Source: a virus. Taken from it: a stretch of DNA of 64,000 nucleotides. The stretch covers positions 18,799 to 82,798 of IMG/VR virus record IMGVR_UViG_3300034374_007216; one strand, written 5' to 3'. Each line of letters starts with the position of its first letter. Within the stretch, counting starts at the first letter, position 1. The notes below the pieces were generated by a model, which ran no database searches, had not been told where the DNA came from, and saw nothing but the letters and a program-made list of their open reading frames with translations. Position numbers and translations under genes: made by a program. Below are positions 558 through 62,423 of the stretch, in pieces.

Positions 558-2203
558 CCCATATGCCCCCTACGAGAAATAAGAATACCAGCAGGGTCAA
601 GACCCATTCTGCTTGAATTTGTTTCAAGATTTTGTGTTGGTCCATCATTCTTTTCATCTTCATCTTCATTGTTTTGAACACCTGCGGGGTGGTCGGGAAC
701 ATGACCGTTTTCAAACGCCGAGCCTCCACCTTGCATCGCTTTCTTTAATTTCGCTTCTCTTTCTTTTGCCGCAATAAGCCGACGCATTAAATTAAGCATT
801 TCCATATGTCTTGCGAAATTTTTTGCTTTCAAAATGTCGCTTTGAGTTCTATCTTCACTCATCATAATACTTGATGGTGGTGCTGGCATACTTGGTACAG
901 ATGATTGAACAGGTGGTAATTGTGGTGGCATCATTGGTGGCATCATTGGTGGTTGTGGAGGTCGTGGTGCTCTTACTCGTAGTGGTCGAAGTGATGGTTG
1001 TCGCATCATTCCCTTTTGTTGTGGCAACAATCCACCAAGACGACCCGCTCCTGTTGGACCAGCATAACTGCCTCGTTGTGCAAATCGAGCGTGTGGTGAA
1101 AATGTAGTTCGCACATTACCAAGAATTTTTCTTGCCTCGGATTGACCTTGATAGGCTCGGTATCGTTGTGGGTCTTTACTCATCGGTTGTTTAGTCGCAA
1201 TACCCCTGTGGCTCATTTCAACGGCTAAGTGAGGCAACATCAAACCTGTTTTCTTACCACCTTTGATACCACGCATACGGGCTTTAAACCGTCGCATTGT
1301 TGCCCCTACCGGGTCCATGCCGCCGGGAGGTCGCTTGAATTGTCCTGTTGATGGTCGAAATTCTTGACGGGCTTCTTGTTTTCTGCGTCGTGCAATTGTG
1401 CGTGGTGTTTCTATTTTGAGCAAATTACTCCAAGCATCATCCATCGGCTCGCTCATAGTGAAACCTGTTTTTTCATTAAACGGTACATCAGTAAAATCAC
1501 GATATTCACCTTCTATATCATCAAACGGGGGTCGTGCATCATCAACAATAAAATTATGTAAATCATATAATCTATCAAAAAAATCTTCACGAGATGTAGC
1601 ACCTGCTAAATGGTCTATATCGGGTTGTGTAAAATCATCCCCAATTCCTTCGTATTCCCACGGTTTATCTATCAATTCTTGAATCCAATTATACCATTCG
1701 GGGTGAACATCATCACGATTTGGCATATTATATCTGTATTTGTATTGATTTTCTCCGGGGTGTACAGTAGGTTCTTCCTTCAACAATGTACTCCAAGCAT
1801 CATCCATCGGCTCGCTCATTGCGATTGGTAATGGTCCTGTCATTGCTGAACCTGTGCCTGTTTTAGCACCTGTAGCAAGGTCAAGTAAATTACCTCGACT
1901 ACCGGGCGGTCCACCTGTAAGTCCAATTTCACGCTCTTCATCTCTTTTGTTTGAATCATTCATAGCAACAGGGCTTTCTTCACCACGCAATCCTTGTGAA
2001 GCACGAATTTTAATGTGTTTTATTTTACCCTTATTTGCTTTCTTTTCTTCTTCTTTGAGTTTCTTTTCTTCACGCTTTTGCTCATTGTATTCGGGTGAAG
2101 CGGGATTGTATTTTGTTTCATCTTCATTTGCAGATGAATACATCTTATCCGATTCACTACGAGGGTTATACAGGCGAGTGTCCGAACCTCTTCCCATAAC
2201 CAT
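554..2203 (-). CDS. Low-complexity putative virion/internal protein with two SEPMDDAWSxLLK motifs
   Basis: 549-aa ORF; basic and Pro-rich segments; the motif flanks an acidic insert. Confidence 0.7.
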   Translation of the reverse strand: MVMGRGSDTRLYNPRSESDKMYSSANEDETKYNPASPEYNEQKREEKKLKEEEKKANKGKIKHIKIRASQGLRGEESPVAMNDSNKRDEEREIGLTGGPPGSRGNLLDLATGAKTGTGSAMTGPLPIAMSEPMDDAWSTLLKEEPTVHPGENQYKYRYNMPNRDDVHPEWYNWIQELIDKPWEYEGIGDDFTQPDIDHLAGATSREDFFDRLYDLHNFIVDDARPPFDDIEGEYRDFTDVPFNEKTGFTMSEPMDDAWSNLLKIETPRTIARRRKQEARQEFRPSTGQFKRPPGGMDPVGATMRRFKARMRGIKGGKKTGLMLPHLAVEMSHRGIATKQPMSKDPQRYRAYQGQSEARKILGNVRTTFSPHARFAQRGSYAGPTGAGRLGGLLPQQKGMMRQPSLRPLRVRAPRPPQPPMMPPMMPPQLPPVQSSVPSMPAPPSSIMMSEDRTQSDILKAKNFARHMEMLNLMRRLIAAKEREAKLKKAMQGGGSAFENGHVPDHPAGVQNNEDEDEKNDGPTQNLETNSSRMGLDPAGILISRRGHMG

Positions 2204-2880
2204 TATTCAACCCCCATGTTTTCTTGCAATTGGCGTTTTATACGCATCCAAGTTTCGGGGCTTTCTTTACCCAACTCAACTTGAAGAATGTTAAATGTTT
2301 GATTGACTTGTTGCCCATCACTCTTTGCACCCCATTGGTCTTGGAAACGCAACAAGTCTTTGACAGTTTCTCGTACTTCTTTATGAAGAGCGACAGCATC
2401 TCGTACAAACCCATCTTCATGTACAGTTCCTTCATCAAGTAGTTCACTTAGTTTGTGATTTAATTTCTCAGCATTTGAACGGAGTAAAGCAATTTCTTGA
2501 CCCGCAACAAGTGCCACTTCCATAGCCGCAGATTTTTGGACAAGTGGTTGAAAATGACTCTTCATATGACGATATACAACAGTTTCTTTTATCTCTAATT
2601 GATTTGCTATTTCATCGGATGTAATTTCATTTGAGAAATAAGCGGTTTCATACTCAGCACGCATTGGTGTAGTACACACAGGACACGATTCATTTGCCGC
2701 TTCGTAATATTCACCCATATGATTTCGATAATGACGGTCTGCGGTGTTCTGCCTCCACCCCATATCTTTATCCAATTGACGAGCAGAAATGTGGCCTTGA
2801 AGCATCTCTTCTTCTAATGAATCACGCTCTTCGGAAATGCAAAAAGCACAGGAACGCTTGACTATACGCTCCGCCGCCAT
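2203..2880 (-). CDS. CxxC/HTH-repeat DNA-binding protein, possible terminase small subunit
   Basis: Two CxxC + HTH-like units (CAFC...HYRNHM; CPVC...YRHMKSH) and a coiled C-terminus; start reassigned to MAAERIVK. Confidence 0.45.
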   Translation of the reverse strand: MAAERIVKRSCAFCISEERDSLEEEMLQGHISARQLDKDMGWRQNTADRHYRNHMGEYYEAANESCPVCTTPMRAEYETAYFSNEITSDEIANQLEIKETVVYRHMKSHFQPLVQKSAAMEVALVAGQEIALLRSNAEKLNHKLSELLDEGTVHEDGFVRDAVALHKEVRETVKDLLRFQDQWGAKSDGQQVNQTFNILQVELGKESPETWMRIKRQLQENMGVE

Positions 2881-2940
2881 GAGCGTTCTATAGAGTTCAA
2901 GTTCAAAACAATTATGGATGAAAGGTGCTTCCAACATACC

Positions 2941-3252
2941 ATGTGGGGGCGAAAACGAATAGCCAAAATACCCCTCACAAAAGAAACGCTTCAAAGCCTA
3001 ACAAACGCCGCATCCGATGTTTGTCATGGTCGTTTTGCTCCAAAACACATTGTAGCCGAGCGTTTAAGAATTTGTTCAACTTGTCCTTACGGCGGTACAA
3101 GATGTGATTTGTGTGGCTGTTTTATCAAAACAAAAGTATCACTATTGAATTCTAAATGCCCAATAGAAAAGTGGTCAAGCCCCTCTCGTGATGCGGGAAT
3201 AGACAGCACTCAAGAAAATAGTGCTGGCGAAGATTCCAATGACAAGGTATGA
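2941..3252 (+). CDS. Small Cys-rich zinc-binding protein (DUF6171-like)
   Basis: ERLRICSTCP...CDLCGCFIKTK...KCPIEKW pattern. Confidence 0.6.
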   Translation: MWGRKRIAKIPLTKETLQSLTNAASDVCHGRFAPKHIVAERLRICSTCPYGGTRCDLCGCFIKTKVSLLNSKCPIEKWSSPSRDAGIDSTQENSAGEDSNDKV

Positions 3253-3417
3253 TGCTTTTTCCGAGCCAAGTGTATCTCCTTTAAACAAGAGAATCATTGT
3301 AAGAGCCACAATGAATGAAATAATTTGTACCATAATCATGTCAATAATCACGCTTCGATTTGGGTTTAAAACATCAAGTGTTGTTGCGGCAAATGAAGAT
3401 GGAAGGTATTTATCCAT
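3175..3417 (-). CDS. Small two-TM membrane protein
   Basis: Two hydrophobic stretches; last gene of the minus-strand GTPase operon. Confidence 0.6.
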   Translation of the reverse strand: MDKYLPSSFAATTLDVLNPNRSVIIDMIMVQIISFIVALTMILLFKGDTLGSEKASYLVIGIFASTIFLSAVYSRITRGA

Positions 3418-3418
3418 A

Positions 3419-6130: not shown

Positions 6131-6141
6131 GAGGTATCACC

Positions 6142-6720: not shown

Positions 6721-6755
6721 TCTTGGTCAAAAATATGGTCATTATAACTGTTTCG

Positions 6756-6927: not shown

Positions 6928-6931
6928 GTGC

Positions 6932-7393
6932 TTACCATTGCCTAAAGACAGGTACTGAAGTATCTCCGTAGCCTAATTGCTGTAATGCTCTCATACGATG
7001 GCGACCATCATGACCCACAGGACTATCGGTAAATACATAGTCTGCTCTTGGTATTACAAAACGCATATCTTCTCCTTGCATTGCTCTTTGCATGAGGTTT
7101 TTGTAGTAATCATCTTCAACCATTTCATCTGTTCCTGTTTCTTGTAAGAATTGATTTGGAGTCATGTTGGTTATTTCCGCAAAATCTTCTAAATCACTTT
7201 CATGCGGTATTTCTCTTTCAGTTGAATCAAATGTTTTTCCTTCTTTTATCCAAACACCCGGTAATCCCCCATGAAGACTTTTATCTTGTGTCCAATCTTC
7301 ATTATCTCCTTGAGTGACAAAACGAATACCGGGTACATTTGTTTCATACACCGGCATTTTCAAAAACAACCAAGCCTTGTCCATCGGAGTCAT
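6932..7393 (-). CDS. ParB/Srx-like domain protein with MTPMDKAWLFLK leader
   Basis: HDGRHRMRALQQLGY...VPV matches the ParB-like DG.HR motif. Confidence 0.6.
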   Translation of the reverse strand: MTPMDKAWLFLKMPVYETNVPGIRFVTQGDNEDWTQDKSLHGGLPGVWIKEGKTFDSTEREIPHESDLEDFAEITNMTPNQFLQETGTDEMVEDDYYKNLMQRAMQGEDMRFVIPRADYVFTDSPVGHDGRHRMRALQQLGYGDTSVPVFRQW

Positions 7394-7395
7394 TT

Positions 7396-9726
7396 TTACA
7401 ACTCCCGAAGAGTTCCCTTGTCTTTGAAATGTCTTGCCCTGTTTTCATGTTCTCCTTCAAGAGTTAATTTGCCACCTTCGGTGTGGCTGATGTCTTTATG
7501 GTCGTGGCTACCGTATATGCCACGCTTTCTTCGTTCTTGGTTAAGTTGCTCTCTATACTTTATTCTTTCGGGGCTGGACTCATACTTCTTGTCGTACTCC
7601 AACTTGTGCCGCTTGGCTTCGGGGCTTACACGCTCTTTGAGCAGTTGAAAGGCGATTTCCATAGGTTCGCTGGCGAGTTTCTTCCATTGAGAGGGGTGTA
7701 CTGCGTGCGCTCTTACGGGGTCAAGGAGGCCATCGGGTTTAGTATCACCAAAATCAATACCACCGGGCATTTCCGCTTGCGAGTCTTGCCATGCGTCAAA
7801 CATTATTTCCATTACTGCTCGGTCTAATTCCTCTTTTGTAGTAGGAAAATGATTTTGAAAAGCCATATTCATGAAGTAATTTCCTTGATTATTCAAAAAG
7901 GATAACTTGTCATCATCACTCATGTTTTCCACATAATCCCACAAAGAATTGGTAGTAGCAATAAGTTGTTCATCTGCTTCATCATTCCATATTTGTTCAT
8001 GAGGATGAATGTACTCTTCGTCTTGATAATCAATGTCTTCCTTGAGCAGTTGGAAGGCGATGTTCATTGGTTCGCTGGCGAGTTTTTCATCTTCATTTTC
8101 TGCTTCTTCATTTTCTGGCTCTTGCTTTTTAGGCAACCGCACAGTTAATGGTTTTCTGTTTGTATATACATTAACAGGGTTTGCAATTCCCATTCTTTTT
8201 CTTTCTTCATTTGCCGCCTGTAATTCATCTAATCTATTTTGCCATAACATTTCGCCTCTTTTCTTATCATCTGCTCTTTTTTCCCAATAGGTTAAGGGTA
8301 CGAAATCTGGCGATGACTCATTAGTTGTTCTAAAATTTAAATGATTTCTGCCGGTATCTCTCATAGTATTTTTTAAATTGTTAATAAATCTTACATCCAT
8401 ATCATCCGGTTTATCCAAACCTAATGGATAATTGGGTAAATTTTCCATTGGTGCTATATTTTCATTCAATCTAAATCGGGGGCTGAATAACCGGTAGCGG
8501 AGTAATTGACTATAATCATTTTTGAGCAACCGCAAAGCGATGTCCATTGGTTCGCCTGTGTATTTCATTTGGTCGGCTTCACTAAAACCAGCATTATCAC
8601 ACATTTCATCATATAATTCATATTCCATTATTTCTTCACAACTTGCGTTTTCAACTTCTTCTATCAAAGATTCCATATATTTTAACGCTTCGTGCTTATG
8701 CGGAGTTTCATATTCGGGGTCATTTTCCTCACCAAAAGTCCAATTAGGCCCATCTTCATCTTCATCTTCAATTATCTGATTTAGGTAATTTTGGTAATCT
8801 GAAAGTATTTCTGTTCTAACAGTTTCAGCACAAGAGCAAGGGTCATTATTTTCTATTGTTTGCATATCTATCATGGGTGTATCTTCTTGCATTGGTGCTT
8901 GCTCTTCAACACTTTGAGTCATTGGAGGTTGCAATTCAAGGCTTTGTTTGAGCAGTTGGAAGGCGATTTCCATTGGTTCACCTTTTGGAAATGTAAAATC
9001 CGTTAATGGTTCATTTAAAAGTTGTTGATTTTTACTCCATTGTTGAAATGGGTCGTGAAAATCCTCAATAGATTCCCATGATTGAGGTGTTCGCTCAAGA
9101 GTAACGGGTGAAACATCTTCACTAAGAACAGGTGGTATTCCATATGCTATCAATTGTTTTGCGGCTTCAATTTCCTTTTCTTTTAATTCATCAATAGATA
9201 AATTATTCGTTGGCATTAAAGCAGTTGCCGCCATTCTTAATGCATGAAAATCTATAGGTCTGTTTGTAATTCTTTGAATATCACTTTCTGGTACATCGCC
9301 ATAAATTATACCTTCGGGTTGCAAGACTTCTGCATATCTTTGTGGTGTATTTTTACCTTCAAACCCATAAAGATGCAACGGTCTATTTCCATGCTTGTAA
9401 CTTGAAGGCACATCTGCTTTTGAATGCGATTGAAAATCGGGATTGAATGAAAATAATTCTGCGGGATATGTAAAACGGCCACCTAAAGGTACTCCGTCTA
9501 ATTCCAAAGGTAATTTATCTATATTTTTGTGTCGAGCGTATCTTAGGTTATTTCTAAAAAATACATTTTCTCCACTCATTAACGACCTTGCTTCTGCTGG
9601 TGTTTTGTATTCTGCTGGTTGCATTCTAAGTGAATGTATGCTTCCACCTAACGGGTTCACATCTTCAAGATACTGCCGATACTCTTGGGGCGAAATGTAC
9701 GCTTTGCGTATCGCCACCTTCCGCAT
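7396..9726 (-). CDS. Multi-module polyprotein: N-terminal ART-like domain, four EPMxIAxxLLK linkers, C-terminal HNH-like module
   Basis: 776-aa ORF; motifs at about 8947, 8521, 8041 and 7636; C-terminal KDISH...ENRAR. Confidence 0.65.
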   Translation of the reverse strand: MRKVAIRKAYISPQEYRQYLEDVNPLGGSIHSLRMQPAEYKTPAEARSLMSGENVFFRNNLRYARHKNIDKLPLELDGVPLGGRFTYPAELFSFNPDFQSHSKADVPSSYKHGNRPLHLYGFEGKNTPQRYAEVLQPEGIIYGDVPESDIQRITNRPIDFHALRMAATALMPTNNLSIDELKEKEIEAAKQLIAYGIPPVLSEDVSPVTLERTPQSWESIEDFHDPFQQWSKNQQLLNEPLTDFTFPKGEPMEIAFQLLKQSLELQPPMTQSVEEQAPMQEDTPMIDMQTIENNDPCSCAETVRTEILSDYQNYLNQIIEDEDEDGPNWTFGEENDPEYETPHKHEALKYMESLIEEVENASCEEIMEYELYDEMCDNAGFSEADQMKYTGEPMDIALRLLKNDYSQLLRYRLFSPRFRLNENIAPMENLPNYPLGLDKPDDMDVRFINNLKNTMRDTGRNHLNFRTTNESSPDFVPLTYWEKRADDKKRGEMLWQNRLDELQAANEERKRMGIANPVNVYTNRKPLTVRLPKKQEPENEEAENEDEKLASEPMNIAFQLLKEDIDYQDEEYIHPHEQIWNDEADEQLIATTNSLWDYVENMSDDDKLSFLNNQGNYFMNMAFQNHFPTTKEELDRAVMEIMFDAWQDSQAEMPGGIDFGDTKPDGLLDPVRAHAVHPSQWKKLASEPMEIAFQLLKERVSPEAKRHKLEYDKKYESSPERIKYREQLNQERRKRGIYGSHDHKDISHTEGGKLTLEGEHENRARHFKDKGTLREL

Positions 9727-9771: not shown

Positions 9772-11655
9772 ATGTGCATGAGTCGTGTTGCTGTCAAGAA
9801 AGGCAACGACGACATCGAGAAAGAATTAGCCGGAACTGTTGGTGGAGCGGCGGCTGGTAGGTTGGCTGGTGCGGCTATTGGTAGTATTGTACCGGGAGTA
9901 GGCACTGTTATTGGTGGTATGTTAGGTGGTGCTTTAGGAGCAAAAGTTGGAGATAAAATTACTGATGCGGCGGGTGTTGGAGGTCAAGCCCCAAGTAGTA
10001 CACAAAACTCGATGGCATCTTCATCAATGGCTACATCGGGTTCGGACAACACTCAAGCAGGTCAAGAAGACAACGCCGAACAATTATCCGCCCAACAATC
10101 AGCCGCTCAAAGAGCAGGTGGGGCGGCGATGGCAATAGGCCAACATTTTGCACAGCAACAACAAATGCAACAACAGAACAATCAACAAATGGCTGAAAAG
10201 GCTAAGCAAAATTCACAAATTCAAACAGGCGAGCCGATGGATATGTCATGGCGTTTGTTAAAAGATATTTATTTTAATCAATTATACAATAAACCAGAAT
10301 ATGCTCAAGCAAGACAACAAATCATTGATGCGGCTATTGAAAACATGCAAAATGTTCAATATTCACCAGATACTCATGCAAGGATTCGTGCCGGATTTCC
10401 GGGGTATGAACCATCTCATACAATAAATGGTCGAAATTTTTATACAGATGAACTTGGTCAAGATATAGATGCTCGATACCCCGAAGATTACATGTATGAC
10501 CAAGAACATAGTAACCAAAAAAGATTTCCCGGCATGGTTAATATTCCACCATATCATTTAATGGATGCTATGAAAAATTTTGTTGATTGGGAAAATATAC
10601 CTTTAGTCACAGAAGGTGAAAAAGTAGGTCAAAAAAAAGATGTAGGAATTGAAAATCTATTTGGTATTGGTACACCATATAAACGACAAGAACCTTATCG
10701 TGGTGTTTTACAAGAAAGATTAGGAGGATTACCTTCTGTTAAAACATTTCTTGGTAGGGATATGAGATATAAACCAGAAAGTACAGAAAATATTCACCAT
10801 AGTTATTTTATGCATCCTAATTTAGAGCGTGGGCAAAATTTGCTTGAAGCAAATATTGAAAGACAAAAAGAACAAAAACGATTAGCAGAAGAAGCAGAAG
10901 CAGAACAAAAACGATTAGCAGAAGAACAACGAATAAAAGATGAAAATAGAAAAAGACAACAAGCGATAAATAGAGAAACAAGGAAAAAGAAAAAATTAGC
11001 CGATGAAGCAGGTTTAACTGTTGAAGAATGGGAAAAAGCAGAAGAAGAAAGAATAAAAAGAGAGAAAAAAGAAGAAAAAGCAAGAATAAAAGCAGAAAAA
11101 GAACAAAAATTACAAGAAACAATTGCAGAAAACCAACGAATAATTCAAGCAAAAATTCAAGCAAAAATAGAACGAAACAAAAGAGAAGAAAATTTCCCAA
11201 ACGATGTTAATGAAGTTCCCGAAGATGTTTTAAATACAGAAGAAGGGCGTAAAATAGCATCTAAATGGGAAAGAATTGGAAATAGAGTTTATTATAATAA
11301 AAGTCCTGTTGAAGACATGACTGATATAAGAAATGCGTGGAACATAGATTGGAAAGAAAAAGTTCTTGCTGTTGCTGTTGGGCGTAAATTAGGTTATATT
11401 AAAAAATCCGAACCAATGGATTTGGCTTGGCAACTTCTTAAAAATGAACTACAACTTCCACTTCGCTTAGGAGAAAAAATTCGTGAAGATGTCATGGCAC
11501 TTGACAGGCAACACAAAATAATGGACAATCCCGATGGCACGCTAATTCAAAACATTCATCCCGACATGGAAAATGTCGTTAAGTTGCTCACAAATATGGA
11601 AGCCGATAAACAACCTGTACCTACACGGCCTTCAAGACCTGCATACCTGTTTTGA
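9772..11655 (+). CDS. Glycine-zipper / coiled-coil polyprotein with two EPMDxxWxLLK motifs
   Basis: GAAAGRLAGAAIGSIVPGVGTVIGGMLGGALG zipper; E/K-rich coil; motifs at about 10228 and 11407. Confidence 0.7.
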   Translation: MCMSRVAVKKGNDDIEKELAGTVGGAAAGRLAGAAIGSIVPGVGTVIGGMLGGALGAKVGDKITDAAGVGGQAPSSTQNSMASSSMATSGSDNTQAGQEDNAEQLSAQQSAAQRAGGAAMAIGQHFAQQQQMQQQNNQQMAEKAKQNSQIQTGEPMDMSWRLLKDIYFNQLYNKPEYAQARQQIIDAAIENMQNVQYSPDTHARIRAGFPGYEPSHTINGRNFYTDELGQDIDARYPEDYMYDQEHSNQKRFPGMVNIPPYHLMDAMKNFVDWENIPLVTEGEKVGQKKDVGIENLFGIGTPYKRQEPYRGVLQERLGGLPSVKTFLGRDMRYKPESTENIHHSYFMHPNLERGQNLLEANIERQKEQKRLAEEAEAEQKRLAEEQRIKDENRKRQQAINRETRKKKKLADEAGLTVEEWEKAEEERIKREKKEEKARIKAEKEQKLQETIAENQRIIQAKIQAKIERNKREENFPNDVNEVPEDVLNTEEGRKIASKWERIGNRVYYNKSPVEDMTDIRNAWNIDWKEKVLAVAVGRKLGYIKKSEPMDLAWQLLKNELQLPLRLGEKIREDVMALDRQHKIMDNPDGTLIQNIHPDMENVVKLLTNMEADKQPVPTRPSRPAYLF

Positions 11656-12457
11656 TTTCATCAACAATTGCTGATGAAATTTTTAGTTTCTCTTCATTTA
11701 CGCCTGTTTCAAAACCCCACACATGAAGGTACTTCACAAGTTTTTCAGTTGAAATGTTTGCACCACTTTTTTCGGCAAAAGGACAACCACCAAGCCCTCC
11801 TATGCTACTATCGAATTCAGTAATGCCGTAAAACAAACCGCTTTGAATTATTTTTATAGCCTTTTCTTCATCTCCTTTATGGTGCAAGTGCAACGCAGGT
11901 TTTATTTTCTCAGCAATTGAAATGCTTGCCATGTCTTTCACCTGCCAAATTTCACCGATGCCTACGGTGTCTGCAAACACAACCGTCGAGCCAAATAATT
12001 TTGCATCACGAATACAATTTTTCAATACTAAGTTTGTAACTTTACCGGTGTACGGAGAGCCAAACGCCATGCTAAGATACACTCGCACATTTTCTTTTGG
12101 CACACCATTGAGCATCGTTTGATACATTTGCACAATTTCACTGCGAGTCTTTTTCATGTTTCGCATGTTAAATTCTTCACACGGTGAAAACACGATGTTG
12201 AATTTTTCCGCCCCTGCCGCTTTTGCTCGGTCAAAGCCACGCTGATTCATGACAAGTACGCCGCCATGCTGAAACACCTGCTCCGCATCAGCCATCTGCG
12301 GAACAAGTTTAGGGTGAGCGAAACTTACTTCTTCGACGCTCTCCAACCCCGCATCGTAAAGTGAATGGATAAGACGCACTTTAGTTTCAGTGTCAATAAT
12401 TTGTTTGATATTTTGTAATCCATCTCTCGGACCTACTTCGTACACTGAAACACGCAT
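11621..12457 (-). CDS. hmgL: Hydroxymethylglutaryl-CoA lyase (DRE-TIM metallolyase)
   Basis: EVGPRDGLQN, ADTVG, HLH, GGLGGCPFA and NISTE motifs. Confidence 0.88.
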   Translation of the reverse strand: MRVSVYEVGPRDGLQNIKQIIDTETKVRLIHSLYDAGLESVEEVSFAHPKLVPQMADAEQVFQHGGVLVMNQRGFDRAKAAGAEKFNIVFSPCEEFNMRNMKKTRSEIVQMYQTMLNGVPKENVRVYLSMAFGSPYTGKVTNLVLKNCIRDAKLFGSTVVFADTVGIGEIWQVKDMASISIAEKIKPALHLHHKGDEEKAIKIIQSGLFYGITEFDSSIGGLGGCPFAEKSGANISTEKLVKYLHVWGFETGVNEEKLKISSAIVDEIKTGMQVLKAV

Positions 12458-12487: not shown

Positions 12488-13168
12488 TTATCTTCTTGAG
12501 TGGTATTGACTACCCATTCTTTGCATCATTCTGTTTCTTTGGGAGTTTGGACCGCCGCCTCGTCTTGGTCGTACTTGGACTTTTGGTGTTGTTTGAATTG
12601 GCTTGAAAACATCTCTTCGTGGTGCAGGTGGTTTGGGCGTTGGTCGTGCGGGGTTTGCTTGAGGGAATCTTGGTTGTTCTATTCTTGCAGGGCCTTCGGG
12701 GTCATATGTTGGTACATCTTCGACCATCCCCATTCCGCCCATTGGCGACCAACTTCTTTCTTGATTTACTTCACTCATAGGAGTTTCATCATCCCTTGCA
12801 TACTCTTGCACAGTGCCATCCCATAGCACTTTATCATTATAATGTGCTGGATGTAAAGGGTCATAGGGTAAAGTTTGGAACATTTCCCAATCTTCAACGG
12901 GTTGAATACCTCGACGCTGATTTATTTTTTGTGCCGCAATCAAACGGTTTGCGTCGCTTTGATTACCTGTATTACCCAAATAACTTAACGAAGGAGCGGA
13001 GTGAATTTGAGCACCTGTAGGAGTCATGCCCTGTTCTTCGTATGCTTGTCGGTAATCGGCCATACGCTCCGGTGTCATACGCAACCCACCCGCTCTTGCG
13101 GCGTGTTGTAGGTCTTCACGACTAAGGGCTTTGAGAAGTTCCCATGCTTGATTAAAAGCACTCGCCAT
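12488..13168 (-). CDS. Hypothetical protein with MASAFNQAWELLK leader
   Basis: ORF begins with the motif; basic, Pro-rich C-terminus. Confidence 0.65.
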   Translation of the reverse strand: MASAFNQAWELLKALSREDLQHAARAGGLRMTPERMADYRQAYEEQGMTPTGAQIHSAPSLSYLGNTGNQSDANRLIAAQKINQRRGIQPVEDWEMFQTLPYDPLHPAHYNDKVLWDGTVQEYARDDETPMSEVNQERSWSPMGGMGMVEDVPTYDPEGPARIEQPRFPQANPARPTPKPPAPRRDVFKPIQTTPKVQVRPRRGGGPNSQRNRMMQRMGSQYHSRR

Positions 13169-13200: not shown

Positions 13201-13881
13201 TTAGAAATCTGTAAGTGATGTTTGCTTTGACGGGTCAAAGGGCTTAGATTTGTTACGAGTTCGGTCCATAAACGGATAAGCACCAATGTCATATTCTTTC
13301 AATGGACTGTTTTCTGCGTAAGGAATTTCGGGTTCGTATAAAAATGAACTTGCTTCATGAATAGAATTATCATCGGGCCTTAAATTAGAAAAACTTAATC
13401 TAACACCGGGTGGTAAATTTTGCATAAATTTTTCATGAAAGGAATGTGATTTTTCATTTCTGTTGTCGGATTCAATGTTATAACCTCTTGCTAAAATAGC
13501 ACGAATTAATTTGTCGTAATATCCTTGCCTTCTATAATTTGAATTTGTAAATCCTTGAAAATTTCGTAATGTGTTTTCACCTAAATCAACATCGGAAAGA
13601 CCTGTAATAAAATGTTTATATTCTGGTGTTGCTAAATAAAAACCTGTTTGTCCATAATCGTTAAGATTTCTAACCAAAAGATTTGGGCGTGGCAAATAAA
13701 TTTCCGGCTCTCTAAACGCCCATTCACCTTCCGAATCAGCCCAATCAATTACTTCTCCGGTGTTTGGGTCGAACCGTTTTTGACTAAACAATCCGGCGAT
13801 TTGAGCCATAGTATTTTTATTGCTTAGTTGAGAAAATGGCGACTTAAGCAAGTTCCACGCTTGCTCAAACGGGGTCGCCAT
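13201..13881 (-). CDS. GNAT-like acetyltransferase with MATPFEQAWNLLK leader and C-terminal PIP-box-like motif
   Basis: TNSNYRRQGYYDKL matches GNAT motif A (R/QxxGxG/A-like); ends KQTSLTDF. Confidence 0.6.
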   Translation of the reverse strand: MATPFEQAWNLLKSPFSQLSNKNTMAQIAGLFSQKRFDPNTGEVIDWADSEGEWAFREPEIYLPRPNLLVRNLNDYGQTGFYLATPEYKHFITGLSDVDLGENTLRNFQGFTNSNYRRQGYYDKLIRAILARGYNIESDNRNEKSHSFHEKFMQNLPPGVRLSFSNLRPDDNSIHEASSFLYEPEIPYAENSPLKEYDIGAYPFMDRTRNKSKPFDPSKQTSLTDF

Positions 13882-26017: not shown

Positions 26018-27901
26018 ATGATTGACACAGACAAATACAAAGGGCATACACCCGTTAGGAAGGAATGGCCTCGTTGGTGCGAGGATTGGCTATACAGCAT
26101 ATATAATCGAAACGCATTGGTTGAAATCATCCCAAATTGGAATCAAGATAACAACCTTGCTTGCGACGCACCACTTATCCTTCAAGCATACGAAGAGAAA
26201 TGCAAAGAAGTCAAGCGGTTGCGTGAACGACTCATCCGAGCATACGATTGGGTTGAGAAAGTAGTTCACGGTGATGACTCAGTGATGGCGGATTACACGG
26301 AATATGTATGCGGAGATGAAGAAGAATGATTGACACAGACAAATACAAGTTAGTTAATGGAACAAGTTATGACAAGAGAACTGATGATGAAGTCATTAGA
26401 ATCTTAGAACACTGTCGCATGAATAACATCAGGGTCATCTTAGATTATGGCGACACTAAAACAGGTAAGTCTTGGAATGATAGATACGGTATTACAGGTA
26501 GGGTCGGTAGGTCAAGCGGTCAAATAAAAATCCCTATCCTTCTTCACAACAAAAGAAGTAATTGGGGAGGGGCTATGCTTACTCATTGTATAATCGGCAT
26601 CAAAAGAAGTAAAGGTAAAGATACACTTTACAGATGGAAGGAGATGATTGAATGATTGACACAGACAAATATGGAGATATGACTATGAAAGATATAACTG
26701 CACCTATTGACGAAAAAACTGGTGAACCACAACAGATACCTGCAAGGTGGGAGGTTAAGTTGTGTTGGACAGAAGCGTATAGTATAATAGGCGGTGGTGA
26801 GGTGATTTGTAATCTAACAGGAAACAAAGACTCAGCAAACAGAAAGGAATGGGCTGAACTCATAGCAGACGCACCACTTCTCCTTGCCGAAGTCAAGCGA
26901 TTACAAGATGCACTCAAAGAGGCAGTTGAAGTTGTTAAGGAAATGGAGGGCATGGCATATGCTGGTGCTGATGCTGACAAGTTTGCTAACCATACGCTTG
27001 AGTTCATAGGGAATGTAAAGGAGTTGATTGAATGATTGACACAGACAAATACGAAGGACATACAGAAGGTAAATGGCATTGCGAAACAGGGTCATCCATA
27101 GAGGGAGAAGAACAGGGAAGTGTTGAACTCATTTCTTCTCATTCCAAAGAGTTCCATGAGCGATGGTTGTCCGATGCTTCCCTTCGCCATGATGAGCAAC
27201 AGGATGAAAACACAATGGGCGAAAGAACGCAACACCTCATTACCAACATAGCGCACATGTACCACCCCAATGATGAAGGGAGATATGGCATGTGGTATGA
27301 AGAGCATAACAGACTTGTGCCAGATGAGATTTGGCAAAAGGAACAACGAGCGAACATGCGACTGATAGAAGACGCACCACTCCTGCTCGCAGAAGTCAAG
27401 CGGTTGCGTGAAGCATTACAAAAGATGCTAAATGACTTTGAAACGAAGAAAACTGATATGTGGACTATGCGAAACCGTATAGAAACTATACTCAAAGGAG
27501 ATGATTGAATGATTGACACAGACAAATACGAAGGACATACACCTCCACCGTGGGAGTGCAACGACATAGAAGGGCGAGAGATATGGAAATGTCTTTTCAA
27601 TGGGGAGTGCTTCACTGACCCTTCAACCTACGGTACAGATGGCTATGAAGAAGTAGTGATTGCGACCATGAATCCGTTATCGGATGACGAGAACGAAGAA
27701 GAGTTCACGACAATGATGACCAACAAAATACTCATGGCAGACGCACCACTTTTCCTTGAGGAAGTCAAGCGGTTGCGTCGTGTTCTTGAGGACATTGAAT
27801 CCATGATACCCGACAACCACGAAGAGATAAGCCCTATCTTGAGCGACATCCTTAGCGAATGCCACAGGGTACTACCCATGTTTAACGAAGTGATTGAATG
27901 A
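26018..27901 (+). repeat. Tandem array of five MIDTDKY-starting ORFs
   Basis: ATGATTGACACAGACAAATA at 26018, 26326, 26652, 27032 and 27509; four share DAPL....EVKRL. Confidence 0.85.
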
Positions 27902-30487: not shown

Positions 30488-31147
30488 ATGGTCGCACCTT
30501 TCGATGAGGCTTTCTCATACCTGCGACAAAATAATCCGACAGGACAATACATAGGTGGTAGCACAGGGGCGAGAAGATTCGACTTACCAATGGGGCAGTT
30601 CGTCGGTAAGCGTGGCGATAGCCCTGCTCACCTTCAAAACGAATTCGACATGAATCAATACTTGAATGCACTTGGCGTTGATGTACCACAGGCACAGGAA
30701 CAACTAATGGATGGGCGACCCATGATGCTTACTGAGTTTGAACAGGGTCAAGAATTAGGGCGAGCAAGCCCACAGGATATTCAACAATTAACGACGGACT
30801 TCGTGCCTCATGCCCTCATATCCAATTGGGATATGTTGGGGTTGGGGCGTGATAATGTCATACGCAGACCCGATGGTTCTCTTACCTATGTGGATGTAGG
30901 TGGGGCAGGTCCTTTCCGAGCACAAGGGGGGCATAAGGGTGCGTTTGGAACAAGCGTAGGGGAGTTAGATACCCTACGAGAAAAGAATCCCGAACTTGCA
31001 GGTATTACTGAACAAGACATCGGGCGGTCATTCGATGAGTACGGCGGTCAATCCGCTATGGAAGATGCGTTACAACATCTAAGAGATAGGCGTACTCAAG
31101 ACATTATGCGACAAAGAATACAGGATTTAACCCGCCGAGTCGCATAA
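30488..31147 (+). CDS. HipA/PI3K-like kinase-fold protein with MVAPFDEAFSYLR leader
   Basis: GGSTG loop, VGK, NE, NWD...DN, YVDVGG. Confidence 0.65.
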   Translation: MVAPFDEAFSYLRQNNPTGQYIGGSTGARRFDLPMGQFVGKRGDSPAHLQNEFDMNQYLNALGVDVPQAQEQLMDGRPMMLTEFEQGQELGRASPQDIQQLTTDFVPHALISNWDMLGLGRDNVIRRPDGSLTYVDVGGAGPFRAQGGHKGAFGTSVGELDTLREKNPELAGITEQDIGRSFDEYGGQSAMEDALQHLRDRRTQDIMRQRIQDLTRRVA

Positions 31148-52637: not shown

Positions 52638-52644
52638 AAAGGAG

Positions 52645-54054: not shown

Positions 54055-54652
54055 TGTGTTGGCATTAGATATTGAAACTACAAACTTCTCGTGGGAAATT
54101 GGAGGTTGGGATAAGACGGCATCGTTTGAACCATCAGTCGTGGCGACATGGGATGGTAACAAAGGAACTATCTATTGTGATGAATCCATTGATAATGAGC
54201 ATGTTGTAAAAGCCCTACATCCTCGTACTCTCGGAGATGACCTAACAGAACACATAGAAAAGGGCGGTGTAATCATAGGGCATAATATCAAATCATTTGA
54301 TTTACCCGTATTGCGTGATTCACTCGATTGTTGGGCTGTCAATGATTTACTTGGTAAATCCGATGCCGTCATAGATACAAGACATTTGATAAACAAAGCA
54401 TCTCTAAGTGTTGGTAAAGTTGATTTAACACTTGGTATGCTTGCAAAAACTACATTCAACGACAATAAGTTAATGAACAGTGCAGATGCACCGATTGCTT
54501 GGAGAGAGGGGCGATATGATGAGGTGGCAAAATACTGCTTGAGTGATGCCAAAATAACATACGATTTGTATGAGTTTGGTAAGAGTGAAGGCTACATTTC
54601 ATCACGAAGTCTTGAAACAGGCGATGTCGTTGAAATCCAAGTTGAGTGGTAA
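54047..54652 (+). CDS. DEDD / RNase H-like 3'-5' exonuclease
   Basis: LDIET, GHNIKSFD, YCLSD. Confidence 0.8.
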   Translation: MSDVLALDIETTNFSWEIGGWDKTASFEPSVVATWDGNKGTIYCDESIDNEHVVKALHPRTLGDDLTEHIEKGGVIIGHNIKSFDLPVLRDSLDCWAVNDLLGKSDAVIDTRHLINKASLSVGKVDLTLGMLAKTTFNDNKLMNSADAPIAWREGRYDEVAKYCLSDAKITYDLYEFGKSEGYISSRSLETGDVVEIQVEW

Positions 54653-56154
54653 ATATGGAGAAGGAAACAAACAAAGGAACAGCACAAGTACATAACATAA
54701 GAGCGGCGAAAACTGTAGCAGAAACAGTCAAATCAACGCTTGGCCCTATGGGTATGGATAAAATGATGGTGGATGGGCATGGCAATGTCATTGTAACAAA
54801 TGACGGTGCTACCATTCTTCGTGAATTAGATGTATCACATCCGGGCGGGAAGATGATTGCAGAAGTTGCAAAAACTCAAGAAACTCTTTGTTATGATGGA
54901 ACAACAAGTACAGTGGTACTCGCAGGTCAATTGTTAGGCAACAGCGAAACCCTGTTTGAAAAAGGGTTACACCCCAATGTCATTTGTCGTGGGTATCATG
55001 AAGCCGCACAGATGGCTGTCAAGTATCTTGCTGATGAAATTAAAATTGGCGACAAAAGTAATGAAGCATTGATAGGTGTAGCAAAAACTGCAATCACAGG
55101 TAAGACGCTTGAAAGTGCTCTCGATGCAGTAGCCTCACTTTGTGTATCAGCCGTACAAAAAGCGGGTGATGCAGAAAGCGTCAAGGTCGTATCGTTTGCA
55201 GGTGGTTCGTTAGAAGATTCTTACTTGTATGATGGTATCATTGTCAATAAGGACTATGTGCTTGAGGGTGAAGATAATTACTCACAAATGCTTCTCATCA
55301 ACGCAGGTCTTGAAGTTGAAAAGAGCGAAGAAAATGTACAGGTGCAATTGGATGCATCGTCATTCCAAACATACAAGAGTGCAGGTAAGGCTGATTTACT
55401 TTTACAAGCAAAAGAAATAGTTACCGCTTTGCCAAACGGCGGTGTTGTATTTGTACGGGATGGAGTACATGACATTGTTTGTGCTCATCTCAAAAAGAAC
55501 AATATCATGGTGGTACGAAGAGTACCCGAATCATCATTGCGTGCTTTGAGCCGTATGGCAAATACTCCAATCTATCAAACCGCAGAAGATATTGAGGCGG
55601 CGGCTGATGTAAAAATTACTCGTGAAAGAAAAAACGATGTTTGGTATTTGTTTGTTGATAGCGAACATGAATCAAACGAAGCAACACTTGTATTGCGTGG
55701 TGCTACAACGCACACACTTGAAGAAGTCGAGCGTGGGTTTGATGATGCACTTGGCGTAGTTTCACTCGTTATGAACAGTAAAGAGTATGTTGTTGGTGGA
55801 GGTAATTCGTATCTTCGCATGGCTGTACACCTACGCCAACATGCCGCACAGATTGGTGGAAGAGCACAAATGGCGATTGAAGCATTTGCTGACGCATTAG
55901 AAATTATCCCTGCCACGATTGCAGAAAATGCGGGGCATGACCCACTTGACACCATTCTTGCTATGCGACACGAGATTCTTCAAGGCAACACATCGGTAGG
56001 TCCAAATGTAACCAATGGTGGTGTCAAAGACCTGCTTGAAGATATGGTTATTGAACCCGTTGAATTAGTTCGTCAAGCGGTGCTAAGTGCGGCAGAAGTT
56101 ACTAATGCTATCTTACGCATTGACGACATTATTGCACGACGACCTACACAGTGA
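54646..56154 (+). CDS. Group II chaperonin (thermosome subunit)
   Basis: STLGPMGMDKM, TNDGATIL, DGTTS, ILRIDD. Confidence 0.95.
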   Translation: MVNMEKETNKGTAQVHNIRAAKTVAETVKSTLGPMGMDKMMVDGHGNVIVTNDGATILRELDVSHPGGKMIAEVAKTQETLCYDGTTSTVVLAGQLLGNSETLFEKGLHPNVICRGYHEAAQMAVKYLADEIKIGDKSNEALIGVAKTAITGKTLESALDAVASLCVSAVQKAGDAESVKVVSFAGGSLEDSYLYDGIIVNKDYVLEGEDNYSQMLLINAGLEVEKSEENVQVQLDASSFQTYKSAGKADLLLQAKEIVTALPNGGVVFVRDGVHDIVCAHLKKNNIMVVRRVPESSLRALSRMANTPIYQTAEDIEAAADVKITRERKNDVWYLFVDSEHESNEATLVLRGATTHTLEEVERGFDDALGVVSLVMNSKEYVVGGGNSYLRMAVHLRQHAAQIGGRAQMAIEAFADALEIIPATIAENAGHDPLDTILAMRHEILQGNTSVGPNVTNGGVKDLLEDMVIEPVELVRQAVLSAAEVTNAILRIDDIIARRPTQ

Positions 56155-56158
56155 TACA

Positions 56159-56359: not shown

Positions 56360-56419
56360 CGTTCTTTACTACTTGTATGCTCATTATTTTTTCCACATAT
56401 TCGTCTAACCATTTGTCCA

Positions 56420-60412: not shown

Positions 60413-60414
60413 TA

Positions 60415-61131
60415 CTAATCACCCCTAAGCCAAGATTCACGAGTTTCTTGTACTAAAGGTTGAAATTCTTTACTCCAACCAAGAGCCATTCGACCATCTC
60501 TCGGTTGCCATTGAATTTGGTCAAAATAATCAGTTCCGAAACTTGGCATTTGAACAAGTCTTTCGGGTGGTATATCTTGTTCTAAATATGCTTCTGCTGG
60601 TTCACCCACATCACCTTCATTGCGGAATTGACCTGTTGTAATTTCAGCAGGTAATCGAATGCCTATCCATTTTCTATCTTCTGGATTTATATGTTGATGT
60701 ATTGGAACATCGGGAGGTGCAACAAAAGACCCTCTTTTTCCTTTGTCATCGTATAGTTCTTCAAATAAATTAAATGGAACTATACCATAATCGGGATTGA
60801 ATTCTTTAAAACCGTGTTGCATGATTATATCATGTTCCCAATCAATTGCATCGGGATGAGGCTCAGACCCAATAAGACCTGTATGGATTAACCTTTCAGC
60901 AGGTGGATGTAATATTTTATCACGAATTGCCTGTTCAATTTTTGCTCTTTTTTCTGCAACACTTAAATCTTCTAATTCTAATCTTGGGTCTTGCATATAC
61001 CAATCCATTGTAGGATGCCATCGAGTCATAGTTACCGGCCCATACGAACTTGGTAAATCGGGATGGAACTCACCTAATTCAGTTTGGCGAGTAGCCTTGA
61101 GGAAAACCCATGCTTTGTGAAAGGCGGTCAT
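60415..61131 (-). CDS. ART-like domain protein with MTAFHKAWVFLK leader and QTELGEF
   Basis: RWHPT...IHTGL...WIGIR...EAYLEQDIPPERL. Confidence 0.55.
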   Translation of the reverse strand: MTAFHKAWVFLKATRQTELGEFHPDLPSSYGPVTMTRWHPTMDWYMQDPRLELEDLSVAEKRAKIEQAIRDKILHPPAERLIHTGLIGSEPHPDAIDWEHDIIMQHGFKEFNPDYGIVPFNLFEELYDDKGKRGSFVAPPDVPIHQHINPEDRKWIGIRLPAEITTGQFRNEGDVGEPAEAYLEQDIPPERLVQMPSFGTDYFDQIQWQPRDGRMALGWSKEFQPLVQETRESWLRGD

Positions 61132-61685
61132 TGCGTTTCCCTCCATTCAATGAAGTCTTGGTCACGCTTTTGCTGTTCGGGATATAGGCTCTCATTCAAT
61201 CTCGCTTGTTCACTTGTTCTTCCAATTCTTACAAGTGCTTCGGGTGGAATGTTTTGTGGAATTGCATATGAATTGAACAACTGCCTTTCCCCGAACTCAT
61301 CGGGAGAATACGATTCATCCAAATAAGCATCGTTAAGCCTATTACCTCTTATCCCCCATACATCCATCGCTCCTGTGGGTGAACGAGCCGACACTTCACC
61401 ACCCATATCGTGTACCATCCTTACGACTTTCTCCATGTTGCTCGTCGTGGGTTCAATATTGTTATTAAGCATCCACGCCCAAACTGCTTTTTCGGGCATG
61501 TCTTCACTATGATATTGCTTCCAACCTTTTGTTGGTAAAGCCTTCATACCCTCGCTTTGGATTTGTTTTCTGCGAGACTCTTTTGTGTAGCGTGCTCCTC
61601 TCACCGGCCCATACGAACTTGGTAAATCGGGATGAAACTCACCCAACTCCGTTTGGCGAGTAGCCTTGAGGAAAACCCATGCTTT
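61034..61685. repeat. 83-bp near-identical direct repeat (61034-61116 and 61603-61685)
   Basis: Both encode KAWVFLKATRQTELGEFHPDLPSSYGPV. Confidence 0.9.
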
Positions 61686-61991
61686 ACTCATTGCTAATTT
61701 TTGTTGTCCGGGTTGATTAGCAATATCGGCACGCCATTGTTCTCTTTGTTGGCGTTCCATTGCCTCTTGCTTGTTCTTTTCAGCCTGTGCTTTTGCTTCT
61801 TCAATAGGAGTTAAGGTTGCTTGTACTCCACCGTCAAGGGTTGATTGCATACCGAATCGGGTTTGCCCTTGAGGGAGTTCTTTTTTCATGGGTAATTTTT
61901 TGTCTTTTGGAGTTTTAGCCTCAAATTCACGAGCCAACTTTGGGTGTTTTGCATACATAAAACGCCTTTGGGCTTGACTCTCAAATGGCAA
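61128..61991 (-). CDS. ART-like domain protein with internal KAWVFLK motif
   Basis: RYT...IQSEGM...VWAW...VWGIR...YAIPQNIPPEAL; N-terminal MPFESQAQRRFMYAKHP module. Confidence 0.55.
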   Translation of the reverse strand: MPFESQAQRRFMYAKHPKLAREFEAKTPKDKKLPMKKELPQGQTRFGMQSTLDGGVQATLTPIEEAKAQAEKNKQEAMERQQREQWRADIANQPGQQKLAMSKAWVFLKATRQTELGEFHPDLPSSYGPVRGARYTKESRRKQIQSEGMKALPTKGWKQYHSEDMPEKAVWAWMLNNNIEPTTSNMEKVVRMVHDMGGEVSARSPTGAMDVWGIRGNRLNDAYLDESYSPDEFGERQLFNSYAIPQNIPPEALVRIGRTSEQARLNESLYPEQQKRDQDFIEWRETQ

Positions 61992-61997
61992 CCATCC

Positions 61998-62423
61998 TCA
62001 CCACTTGACCTTATCAGCCCAATATGCGGCACTCATTGGACCACGAGCAATGTTTTTAGCGTGGCGAGATTTGAATGATTTACGCTTATTTTTCATGCGT
62101 TGAGATTCACCCGCTTTTGGTTTGCCAGCCACACTTGCACCTTGTTCACCAAATCGAATAGTCTTTGTTTTTCCACCCGACCTCGCTACAACAATATGTG
62201 ATTTCTTAGGATGATTAGGTGTACGCTTTGGTTTGTTAAACCCACTCACACCCGCACGAGCGAGGCGTGGGTCACGCTTTTGTGCTTTTTCTAACTCTTT
62301 ATATCCACCACATGAAGCACAATCGGGCCTACCGCAATAACTCCATCCTTCTTTATGTGAATAATCTTCACAGTCATATTGTTTGGCTTTAAGAAGATTC
62401 CATGCGTCATTCATTGGATTCAT
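61998..62423 (-). CDS. Basic phage protein (DUF6321-like) with MNPMNDAWNLLK leader
   Basis: PKKSHIVVA...TIRFGEQG...KSFKSRH...AYWADKVKW. Confidence 0.65.
   Translation of the reverse strand: MNPMNDAWNLLKAKQYDCEDYSHKEGWSYCGRPDCASCGGYKELEKAQKRDPRLARAGVSGFNKPKRTPNHPKKSHIVVARSGGKTKTIRFGEQGASVAGKPKAGESQRMKNKRKSFKSRHAKNIARGPMSAAYWADKVKW

Follow-up and report, generated by a model that had tools for sequence, protein, structure and literature searches.

A Lys-ended tag on unrelated late proteins of a group-A magrovirus as a candidate address helix for capsid cargo

What does a single short peptide do on many otherwise unrelated late proteins of an archaeal virus? This question is raised by a 64,000-nucleotide stretch of the IMG/VR record IMGVR_UViG_3300034374_007216, which covers positions 18799-82798 of a virus contig of 82,798 bp (label L001; 110 predicted proteins contig-wide) and is called the window below. 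Late proteins of this contig carry a tag with the consensus (S/G-E)-P-M/F-D-x-A-W-x-L-L-K, located at the N-termini of their open reading frames (ORFs) or inside them. An earlier note, made from the letters of the window alone, had proposed that the motif directs packaging into the prohead and/or marks cleavage after Lys, so that effectors are injected into the host; the analysis supports this interpretation in part. We favour, with a probability of roughly 0.5, a reading in which the tag is an address helix for capsid cargo and the viral S78 protease additionally cuts after its Lys.

Tag copies in the contig and among magroviruses

All 15 motif copies listed in the earlier note were found at their positions. 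Fourteen of them, distributed over nine ORFs of the window, are solid (Table 1), while the copy at 30488 was rejected. It ends in Arg, has Phe in place of Trp, lies in the early block and has no counterpart in the homologue (58% identity) from G001, a complete 107.6-kb relative with direct terminal repeats; it is probably a chance match. An additional solid copy (MNPFEIAWFVLK; genome 14104-14532(-)) was identified outside the window in an ORF between terminase and portal that has a weak Pfam match to GNAT. The carriers had been described as unrelated, but g90 and g91 have paralogous leaders, so this does not hold for all of them; between payloads, g90/g91 is the sole case of similarity. Apart from this pair, one short peptide is common to nine otherwise unrelated late ORFs.

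A broad regular expression gave 15 matches in the 110 contig proteins, whereas 1000 shuffles of their residues gave 0.80 on average and never more than 5. As an independent profile, a hidden Markov model (HMM) trained solely on 174 distinct copies from relatives was used to score the contig copies. Fourteen of the 15 Lys-ended copies reached 5.6-15.5 bits, the exception being the second copy in g12 (0.7 bits). The Lys-ended copies took the top scores in the HMM-ranked list, and the best non-tag scores were 1.2 in the contig and 3.1 in G001. A 67-aa Zn-ribbon protein encoded outside the window, G14 (phrog_27331; L001 14529-14732(-)), contains a tag-like sequence, GMGTAWDSLEKK, conserved as GMTTAWDALEKK in G001. 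At 0.1-0.5 bits its score is low, and it may represent an ancestral or degraded version of the tag.

The contig belongs to a tailed virus of Poseidoniales archaea and is a magrovirus of group A. It is assigned to this group because it encodes both SNF2 and a thermosome, which together are the group-A signature in the portion of Philosof et al. 2017 (PMC5434244) drawn on here. The early/replication block occupies the plus strand in the middle of the window, where Pfam identifies a family-B DNA polymerase (PolB), an RFC-like clamp loader, an SNF2 helicase, an ERCC4 nuclease and a C5 methylase. The virion (late) block comprises the minus-strand ends of the window and the 18.8 kb upstream of it, with genes for the large terminase, portal, a 1916-aa protein (weak ligase match), the S78 protease and the major capsid protein (MCP).

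All 15 solid contig copies are located in the late block, in agreement with the claim of the earlier note that the replication genes hold none. The same distribution was observed in G001, where all 14 copies fall in the late block at 33.2-97.7 kb. For five other near-complete relatives, an AW..LK DNA pattern gave 34 matches, 32 of which lie on the strand of the capsid gene, and a reversed control pattern gave 2 matches. The tripeptide LLK occurs 20 times in the 41 late proteins of the contig and 4 times in the 69 early proteins of equal total length. Tagged ORFs account for 3365 of the 13,259 late-block residues (25%).

The tag is lineage-wide and virus-specific. A strict back-translated pattern for P-M-D-x-A-W-x-L-L-K was found in 103 IMG/VR stretches. 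In 596 Gb of prokaryote genomes it gave 13 near-chance stretches, of which 11 were re-found in frame and 3 lie in frames of at least 100 aa; the single real-looking match among them (L212) is a mis-binned magrovirus-like polyprotein. Among ten tag-bearing contigs searched, seven encode an MCP 76-87% identical to that of the contig, and the other three, which are fragments of 54-68% completeness, gave no MCP match. PolB is only 38-52% identical in the five of these ten contigs that were searched with it, and the tag therefore spans well-diverged magroviruses.

Constraint on the peptide and exchange of payloads

Alignment of 227 non-redundant copies revealed conservation beyond the positions fixed by the regular expression, namely Asp/Glu after P-M and Leu before L-K. 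The preceding residues are [GS]-E at internal copies and M-[TN] at N-terminal copies. Conservation breaks off at the Lys itself, with an information content of 3.5 bits at this residue, 0.49 at the next position and at most 0.3 beyond. Lys is the last residue in 219 copies and Arg in 8, in a column that the search expression limits to K/R.

Codon usage was tabulated for 13 copies, which differ in their Pro, Ala, Leu and Lys codons, with four Ala, five Leu and both Lys codons in use. This free synonymous variation indicates that the constraint acts on the peptide and not on the DNA. Within the 14 members of the g11 family, A7, W8, L11 and K12 are invariant while payload identity falls to 30%, and all 51 database homologues of g90 carry the tag. 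In AlphaFold2 (AF2) models of g11 and g90, the tag is predicted as a free N-terminal helix (residues 3-11 and 3-14, respectively) ahead of the folded payload. Judged from its residues, this helix would be amphipathic, with Met/Phe, Ala-Trp and Leu-Leu on one face.

The position of the tag within proteins varies. Among 178 non-redundant copies in complete frames of relatives, 81 are N-terminal, 67 internal, 21 C-terminal (defined as at most 12 residues after the Lys) and 9 ambiguous. A conserved protein of ~190 aa encoded downstream of the MCP illustrates this variation. In 29 relatives it ends in ...SRQVPMRDAWSILK (...PMRDAWSILK), after which it either continues into one of at least ten unrelated extensions, mostly Cys-rich, or stops within 1-6 residues. 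Conversely, the same payloads are found behind both N-terminal tags and the internal tags of polyproteins, including the g11-like module, phrog_7595 (as in g92), phrog_6437 (as at the end of g12) and an RQT..GEFHPD type (as in g90/g91). The phrog_7595 and phrog_6437 domains are stand-alone, untagged and very basic proteins in bacterial phages, the former in roseophages and cyanophages and the latter as a small protein in cyanophages; in cyanophage S-CBS2 they are encoded by the adjacent genes gp45 and gp46. Fusion and splitting occur at the tag as well: g12 and g11 are separated by a stop codon alone, and a g11-like module is fused behind an internal tag in the L152/L153 polyprotein. This sharing of payloads, together with fusion or splitting at the tag, identifies cassettes of tag plus payload as the units of evolution.

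A related arrangement was observed in a DUF5872 protein (G11), which ends in ...KKQGVGGKPT[IM]VK in the contig and is followed in L121 by a canonical tag and payload. In its G001 homologue (L093/L098), SVLVK precedes a g11-like payload, which represents another fusion point with a degenerate tag.

Since modules swap exactly at the motif, the tag might be regarded as a mere evolutionary junction, a linker left by cassette recombination and kept for module exchange at the DNA level, with no biochemical function. Consecutive arrays of tagged genes also have common upstream sequence (for example L130, L138 and L180), as such a junction would suggest. We consider this very improbable, as synonymous codons differ freely while the peptide is conserved, and the tag residues stay invariant in families whose payloads are at 30-40% identity.

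Proposed docking and cutting, and the head module

In the favoured reading, the tag helix would be a common address peptide for a single head-assembly partner, and tagged proteins and modules would be loaded into the procapsid as internal cargo. The proposed cargo would include ADP-ribosyltransferase (ART)-like, GNAT-like and ParB/sulfiredoxin (Srx)-like proteins, small basic proteins of DNA-binding type and multi-module polyproteins. The S78 prohead protease, encoded beside the capsid gene, would then probably cut after the Lys, which would release N-terminally tagged payloads and divide the polyproteins into modules. At infection, the cargo would exit with the DNA. What we infer here is that the tag binds a component of the procapsid, that tagged proteins are packaged and injected, and that the cut falls after the Lys.

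Targeting is favoured because the tag is restricted to late genes, is independent of position, places one helix on unrelated soluble proteins and has a parallel in the capsid-targeting sequence (CTS) of phage T4. The T4 CTS is strictly N-terminal and is removed by the gp21 prohead protease at L/I-x-E. One of the packaged T4 proteins, Alt, is an ADP-ribosyltransferase, which parallels the ART-like fold lead for g90 described below. The likeness lies in a short common peptide on unrelated, fast-changing and late-encoded proteins (IPI-III and Alt in T4). The T4 set combines an ADP-ribosyltransferase with small basic proteins, as the magrovirus set would if the fold lead for g90 holds. For T4-type internal proteins, the passages of PMC3012670 used here describe a diverse set with the conserved CTS as its sole common feature. 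In contrast to the CTS, the magrovirus tag is not a strictly N-terminal peptide (81 of 178 copies are N-terminal); it also occurs internally and at C-termini, ends in L-L-K and punctuates polyproteins. The head module encodes a protease of S78 type and not of T4 gp21 type, and the host is an archaeon. In principle the tag resembles the T4 CTS system, without belonging to it, and no sequence relation between the two is expected.

The helix could instead dock on a partner outside the capsid interior, such as the tail or baseplate, the viral thermosome, a host protein or a membrane, with no packaging or injection involved. Occurrence at N-terminal, internal and C-terminal positions is what a portable binding peptide would show, whichever its partner. 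Furthermore, some tagged genes have tail-fibre-like genes as neighbours (g89 and g87 in the case of g90-g92) or are placed between the head and the tail genes (H88 and H89 in G001), g13 has a glycine zipper of the type seen in tail-associated lysins and tape-measure proteins, and the virus encodes a thermosome (Table 1). However, A-W-x-L-L-K is nearly invariant, which points to one specific protein partner rather than a membrane, and small enzymes and basic proteins, rather than fibres, make up the payloads. A chaperonin is present in 12 of 26 magroviruses according to the part of PMC5434244 cited above, and a viral chaperonin would not be the common partner if the tag occurs in viruses that have none. 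The lack of any real-looking strict-pattern match in cellular genomes gives no sign that the tag mimics a host motif. Docking of this kind appears unlikely to us.

Cutting is favoured because of the conservation boundary at Lys, the polyproteins whose payloads stand alone elsewhere, the adjacent S78 gene, a precedent for the P1 residue in phage phi12, the ELLK|AD site of the MCP and the P-L-[LI]-K motif of G17. The protease (Table 1) is of HK97 type and has its S78 domain at about residues 12-175, where 1254 library representatives match at E<=0.001, followed by a scaffold-like C-terminal half; its profile gave no match among solved structures. The MCP is HK97-like (SU10_MCP/HK97-like), with 34-37% identity to the MCPs of the haloarchaeal siphoviruses HVTV-1 and HCTV-1/5; solved structures gave a single weak match (6j3q, E 0.043). 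Its segment ...SGSELLK|ADAP aligns with ...GGMSK|ADNL at the end of the long N-terminal extension of HVTV-1, and ELLK|AD is invariant in all 28 aligned MCPs (84-95% identity). In the head-block protein G17, the motif P-L-[LI]-K at residues 7-10 is kept in both the contig and G001 (PLIK|AW), and from its sequence this N-terminus is a candidate short propeptide. The residue at the proposed P1 position is basic in the tag, and the HK97-like phage phi12 provides a precedent, its capsid proteins being cut after R128 and K87 with 'K or R in the P1 position' in the section of PMC8569155 relied on here.

These observations would also fit a processing signal alone, in which the S78 protease or a host protease cuts pre-proteins and polyproteins and the tag has no role in targeting. 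The polyprotein-like ORFs with 2-4 copies, the payloads that are stand-alone elsewhere and sit behind internal copies here, the sharp Lys boundary and the K or R at P1 of an HK97-like phage (in the same section of PMC8569155) all agree with it. Nevertheless, ten conserved positions on the P side and a predicted helix exceed the known needs of prohead-protease sites, and the C-terminal copies would release nothing. In addition, the MCP and G17 carry a bare x-L-L-K without the PMxxAW half, and the extra half of the tag must therefore serve another role. A signal for processing alone is accordingly rated as somewhat less likely than docking outside the capsid interior.

Several points weigh against the combination of capsid address and Lys cut. 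Position in the late block alone is no proof of incorporation into the virion. For the C-terminal copies there is almost nothing to release by cutting, so that cleavage is not needed there and docking fits better; the Lys could simply end a docking helix. No tag copy was found in the 47-kb late region of HVTV-1, which has a homologous MCP and protease. Among the candidate cut sites elsewhere in the head module, the N-terminal LLK of the protease (residues 13-15) was rejected, as it lies inside the S78 domain conserved in diverse homologues, and ELLK at residues 18-21 of the 1916-aa protein was rejected because it is not conserved in G001. A second protease motif, [LIVM]-K at residues 167-168, is also kept by diverse homologues from outside the magroviruses (at least 82 of 104 ungapped rows). 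These Lys motifs at the borders of the protease domain may be structural and not cut sites. Mimicry of scaffold tails by the tag was likewise tried: the tails of two scaffold-type proteins, G4 and G7, are not among the 60 best tag-HMM matches, and such mimicry is therefore not supported in this genome.

The two tails form a motif of their own. The protease-scaffold G4 (L001 1862-3214(-)) and the 113-aa G7 (L001 9568-9909(-)), both encoded outside the window, have a common C-terminal NM[SG]W[DE][DE][VI]H.[LM]A, which is retained even in representatives of ~40% identity and is likely a capsid-binding tail of scaffold-type proteins. A complex prediction with the protease-scaffold, the MCP and a 42-aa tag segment gave an ipSAE of 0.00 in both runs, made with no controls, and speaks neither for nor against binding.

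A bolder extension of the address reading would be a position-independent 'cargo code'. Here the helix would dock modules, in the manner of encapsulin cargo peptides, on the site of the HK97-fold capsid or its scaffold used by scaffolding tails, S78 would cut after the Lys, and a quarter of the late genes would be a swappable, injected arsenal. This arsenal would combine ART-, acetyltransferase- and ParB/Srx-like enzymes, alarmone-hydrolase-like enzymes in relatives and DNA-coating proteins directed against Poseidoniales, with RQTELGEFHPDLPSSYGPV as a further sorting or release signal. We regard this version as tentative, about as doubtful as docking outside the capsid interior.

The address helix with a Lys cut also resembles other known systems in part. 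In the giant phages phiKZ and SPN3US, cut sites follow Glu. Many head-internal proteins of these phages are cut at a short consensus by the prohead protease, as described in the parts of PMC5694885, PMC7411985 and PMC10052503 used here; in contrast to the magrovirus tag, no portable ten-residue helix common to all cargo is described for these phages, and the protease family is different. The tag further differs from MuF-type and polymorphic toxins, which are similar in combining a conserved part, a sharp junction and unrelated C-terminal modules (compare the ~190-aa protein of 29 relatives), whereas the shared magrovirus element is ~10 residues long and also occurs alone at N-termini. Pfam and PHROG scans found no MuF domain in the tagged ORFs. 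Encapsulin cargo-loading peptides are short terminal peptides on diverse enzymes that dock inside an HK97-fold shell and can be transferred to foreign proteins. They have another consensus, are usually C-terminal and involve no protease step, DNA or injection, and docking of the magrovirus tag on its MCP is hypothetical. In work by Duda, Oh and Hendrix from 2013, a short C-terminal segment of the HK97 maturation protease reportedly suffices to bring a passenger protein into the procapsid. That protease is of the same S78 family, but the segment is part of the protease itself, while the tag is spread over many cargo genes.

No published description of the tag was found in the main text of the magrovirus papers searched, where the only matching passages concern an unrelated helix-turn-helix motif, or, judged by title and abstract, in other papers. 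If the favoured reading is true, no capsid-targeting or processing signal would have been described for an archaeal virus before this tag, which, unlike the T4 signal, acts irrespective of position and builds polyproteins. Magroviruses rank among the most abundant viruses in surface ocean water, their Poseidoniales hosts are uncultured and most of their late genes are unannotated; about a quarter of the late coding capacity would then be sorted into one class, virion cargo, and the tag would point out which proteins are the first to act in an infected cell. It bears on the question of what archaeal tailed viruses inject besides DNA. In practice, A-W-x-L-L-K offers a sequence handle for mining cargo and effector repertoires from metagenomes, and the tag might be used to load foreign proteins into shells of HK97 type.

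Tagged ORFs, payloads and neighbouring genes

Table 1. Tag copies, tagged ORFs and other features of the contig. Coordinates are those of the window unless preceded by L001 (whole contig).
Feature	Coordinates	Strand	Remarks
Tag g2-2, PMDDAWSNLLK	1415..1447	(-)	one extra residue; HMM 10.5 bits
Tag g2-1, PMDDAWSTLLK	1778..1810	(-)	one extra residue; HMM 8.2 bits
Tag g11, PMDKAWLFLK	7358..7387	(-)	HMM 15.5 bits; AF2 helix 3-11
Tag g12-4, PMEIAFQLLK	7636..7665	(-)	HMM 9.2 bits
Tag g12-3, PMNIAFQLLK	8041..8070	(-)	HMM 8.4 bits
Tag g12-2, PMDIALRLLK	8521..8550	(-)	Leu for Trp, weakest copy; HMM 0.7 bits; homologous copies in G001 read AMRLLK
Tag g12-1, PMEIAFQLLK	8947..8976	(-)	HMM 9.1 bits
Tag g13-1, PMDMSWRLLK	10234..10263	(+)	HMM 14.3 bits
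Tag g13-2, PMDLAWQLLK	11413..11442	(+)	HMM 13.8 bits
Tag g15, AFNQAWELLK	13130..13159	(-)	HMM 5.6 bits
Tag g16, PFEQAWNLLK	13843..13872	(-)	HMM 12.1 bits
Tag g90, AFHKAWVFLK	61096..61125	(-)	HMM 11.6 bits; AF2 helix 3-14
Tag g91, AMSKAWVFLK	61665..61694	(-)	HMM 8.0 bits
Tag g92, PMNDAWNLLK	62388..62417	(-)	HMM 15.2 bits
Doubtful copy g50, PFDEAFSYLR	30497..30526	(+)	early block; HMM 3.7 bits
g2, 549-aa polyprotein-like ORF	554..2203	(-)	two internal tags; last module strongly basic (ARRRK...RPSTGQF...)
g11, 153 aa	6932..7393	(-)	N-terminal tag; DGRHR motif; weak ParB-N/sulfiredoxin fold matches
g12, 776-aa polyprotein-like ORF	7396..9726	(-)	four internal tags; last 79-aa module matches phrog_6437
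g13, 627 aa	9772..11655	(+)	opposite strand within late block; two internal tags; Lys/Glu-rich coiled middle
g15, 226 aa from ATG 13168	12488..13168	(-)	N-terminal tag; Pro/Arg-rich basic C-terminus
g16, 226 aa	13201..13881	(-)	N-terminal tag; GNAT-like payload (lead only)
g90, 238 aa from ATG 61131	60415..61131	(-)	N-terminal tag, second module RQTELGEFHPDLPSSYGPV, then payload with ART-like fold (lead)
g91, 287 aa	61128..61991	(-)	N-terminal FESQAQRRFMYA-type segment, internal tag, g90-type second module, then a different payload
g92, 141 aa	61998..62423	(-)	N-terminal tag, Cys-rich segment, phrog_7595 small basic domain (3.5e-40)
Thermosome subunit	54646-56154		replication block; Pfam
g93	62420-64000	(-)	open at right window end; C-terminal piece of giant protein (6359 aa in G001), 76% identity over common part
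S78 prohead protease, 450 aa	L001 1862-3214	(-)	next to MCP; PF04586 1.2e-9; phrog_23555 2.2e-15
G17, 652-aa head-block protein	528..557 (N-terminus)	(-)	N-terminus MIQIRYPLLK|GW, bare x-L-L-K

The payload labels given in the earlier note fared differently. With a Pfam threshold of E<=1, the tagged window ORFs gave no family other than the weakly matching glycine zipper of g13. The label of a basic payload agrees with the strongly basic sequences of g2, g15, g92 and the end of g12. The basic payload of g2 is found behind tags in many relatives, and its G001 homologue (H66) retains both tags. The ART-like label is supported for g90 as a fold lead. Its AF2 model (pLDDT 75.3) was compared by VIA-align, where the best match, a PE-like toxin, has Z 5.1 with a root-mean-square deviation of 3.6 A over 131 residues, and DarT1 also has Z 5.1; the 50 rows consist mostly of proteins with an ART fold (exotoxin-A-like, DarT, Tpt1, Rhs ART toxins and PARPs), and all Z values are <8. 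Foldseek gave no match for the g90 model at E<=0.001. The modelled g90 payload thus provides a lead towards an ADP-ribosyltransferase-like fold.

For g16, the GNAT-like label stands as a structural and feature lead but not as a Pfam family, as there is no match even at E<=1; Atlas feature scores of 0.85-0.87 and TM values of 0.41-0.48 to GNAT clusters are leads only. The ParB-like label of g11 is a weak fold lead, the best Foldseek rows for its AF2 model (pLDDT 72.9) being ParB-N, Noc and sulfiredoxin at E 0.31-0.68 and TM 0.25-0.30. The HNH-like label was not borne out, since the last piece of g12 matches phrog_6437 alone, a family with no annotated function. Pfam scans, the sole test applied to the kinase-like label of g50, detected no kinase family. 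The N-terminal part of g13 matches a glycine zipper (PF13488, E 0.004), phrog_1047 'tail associated lysin' (3.5e-11) and tape-measure PHROGs. Relatives add a payload that looks, from its sequence, like an HD-type domain whose start resembles small alarmone hydrolases.

Among the matches listed, the C-terminal domain of g92 shares 56-75% identity with small basic proteins of roseophages and cyanophages, and the last module of g12 (7399-7635(-)) shares 39-55% with small basic proteins of cyanophages and Flavobacterium phages. With these two domains, an archaeal virus and bacterial phages have closely related genes in common.

A second module, RQTELGEFHPDLPSSYGPV, follows the tag in g90 (61033-61089(-)) and g91 (61602-61658(-)). 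An alignment of 40 family members shows no variation at 15 module positions between R15 and T34, more conservation than in the payload, and at least three payload classes follow it (..YYHGT.., ..TM.R.HPT.. and ..RG.R..). Among 18 non-redundant copies in relatives, 14 immediately follow a canonical tag and 3 a degenerate one, and 1 has no tag ahead of it. The module may provide an additional signal for sorting or release in one subset of tagged proteins. The two genes also have an identical 28-residue stretch (KAWVFLKATRQTELGEFHPDLPSSYGPV; 61041-61125(-) and 61610-61694(-)) and diverge after it, which indicates a recent duplication of the leader or gene conversion.

The contig is incomplete compared with G001, as the tail genes and the upstream part of the giant gene are absent. 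In G001, the corresponding gap is filled by tail genes and the gene for a 6359-aa protein.

Among the tagged late genes, an HMGL-like gene (pyruvate carboxyltransferase / HMG-CoA lyase type) was identified at 11621-12457(-), with a PF00682 match at 1.4e-19 and a 66%-identical copy in G001. This apparent metabolic gene contrasts with Philosof et al., who, in the portion of PMC5434244 drawn on here, saw no auxiliary metabolic genes in magroviruses.

A separate N-terminal family was observed in the early block. Five small ORFs on the plus strand, at 26326, 27032, 27509, 29834 and 30000, have the common N-terminus M-[IT]-D-T-[DQ]-(K-Y-[KE]), which reads MIDTDKYK.., MIDTDKYE.. (twice), MTDTDKYE.. 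and MIDTQEP... These ORFs are probably paralogues, and one of them has three tandem homologues in G001.

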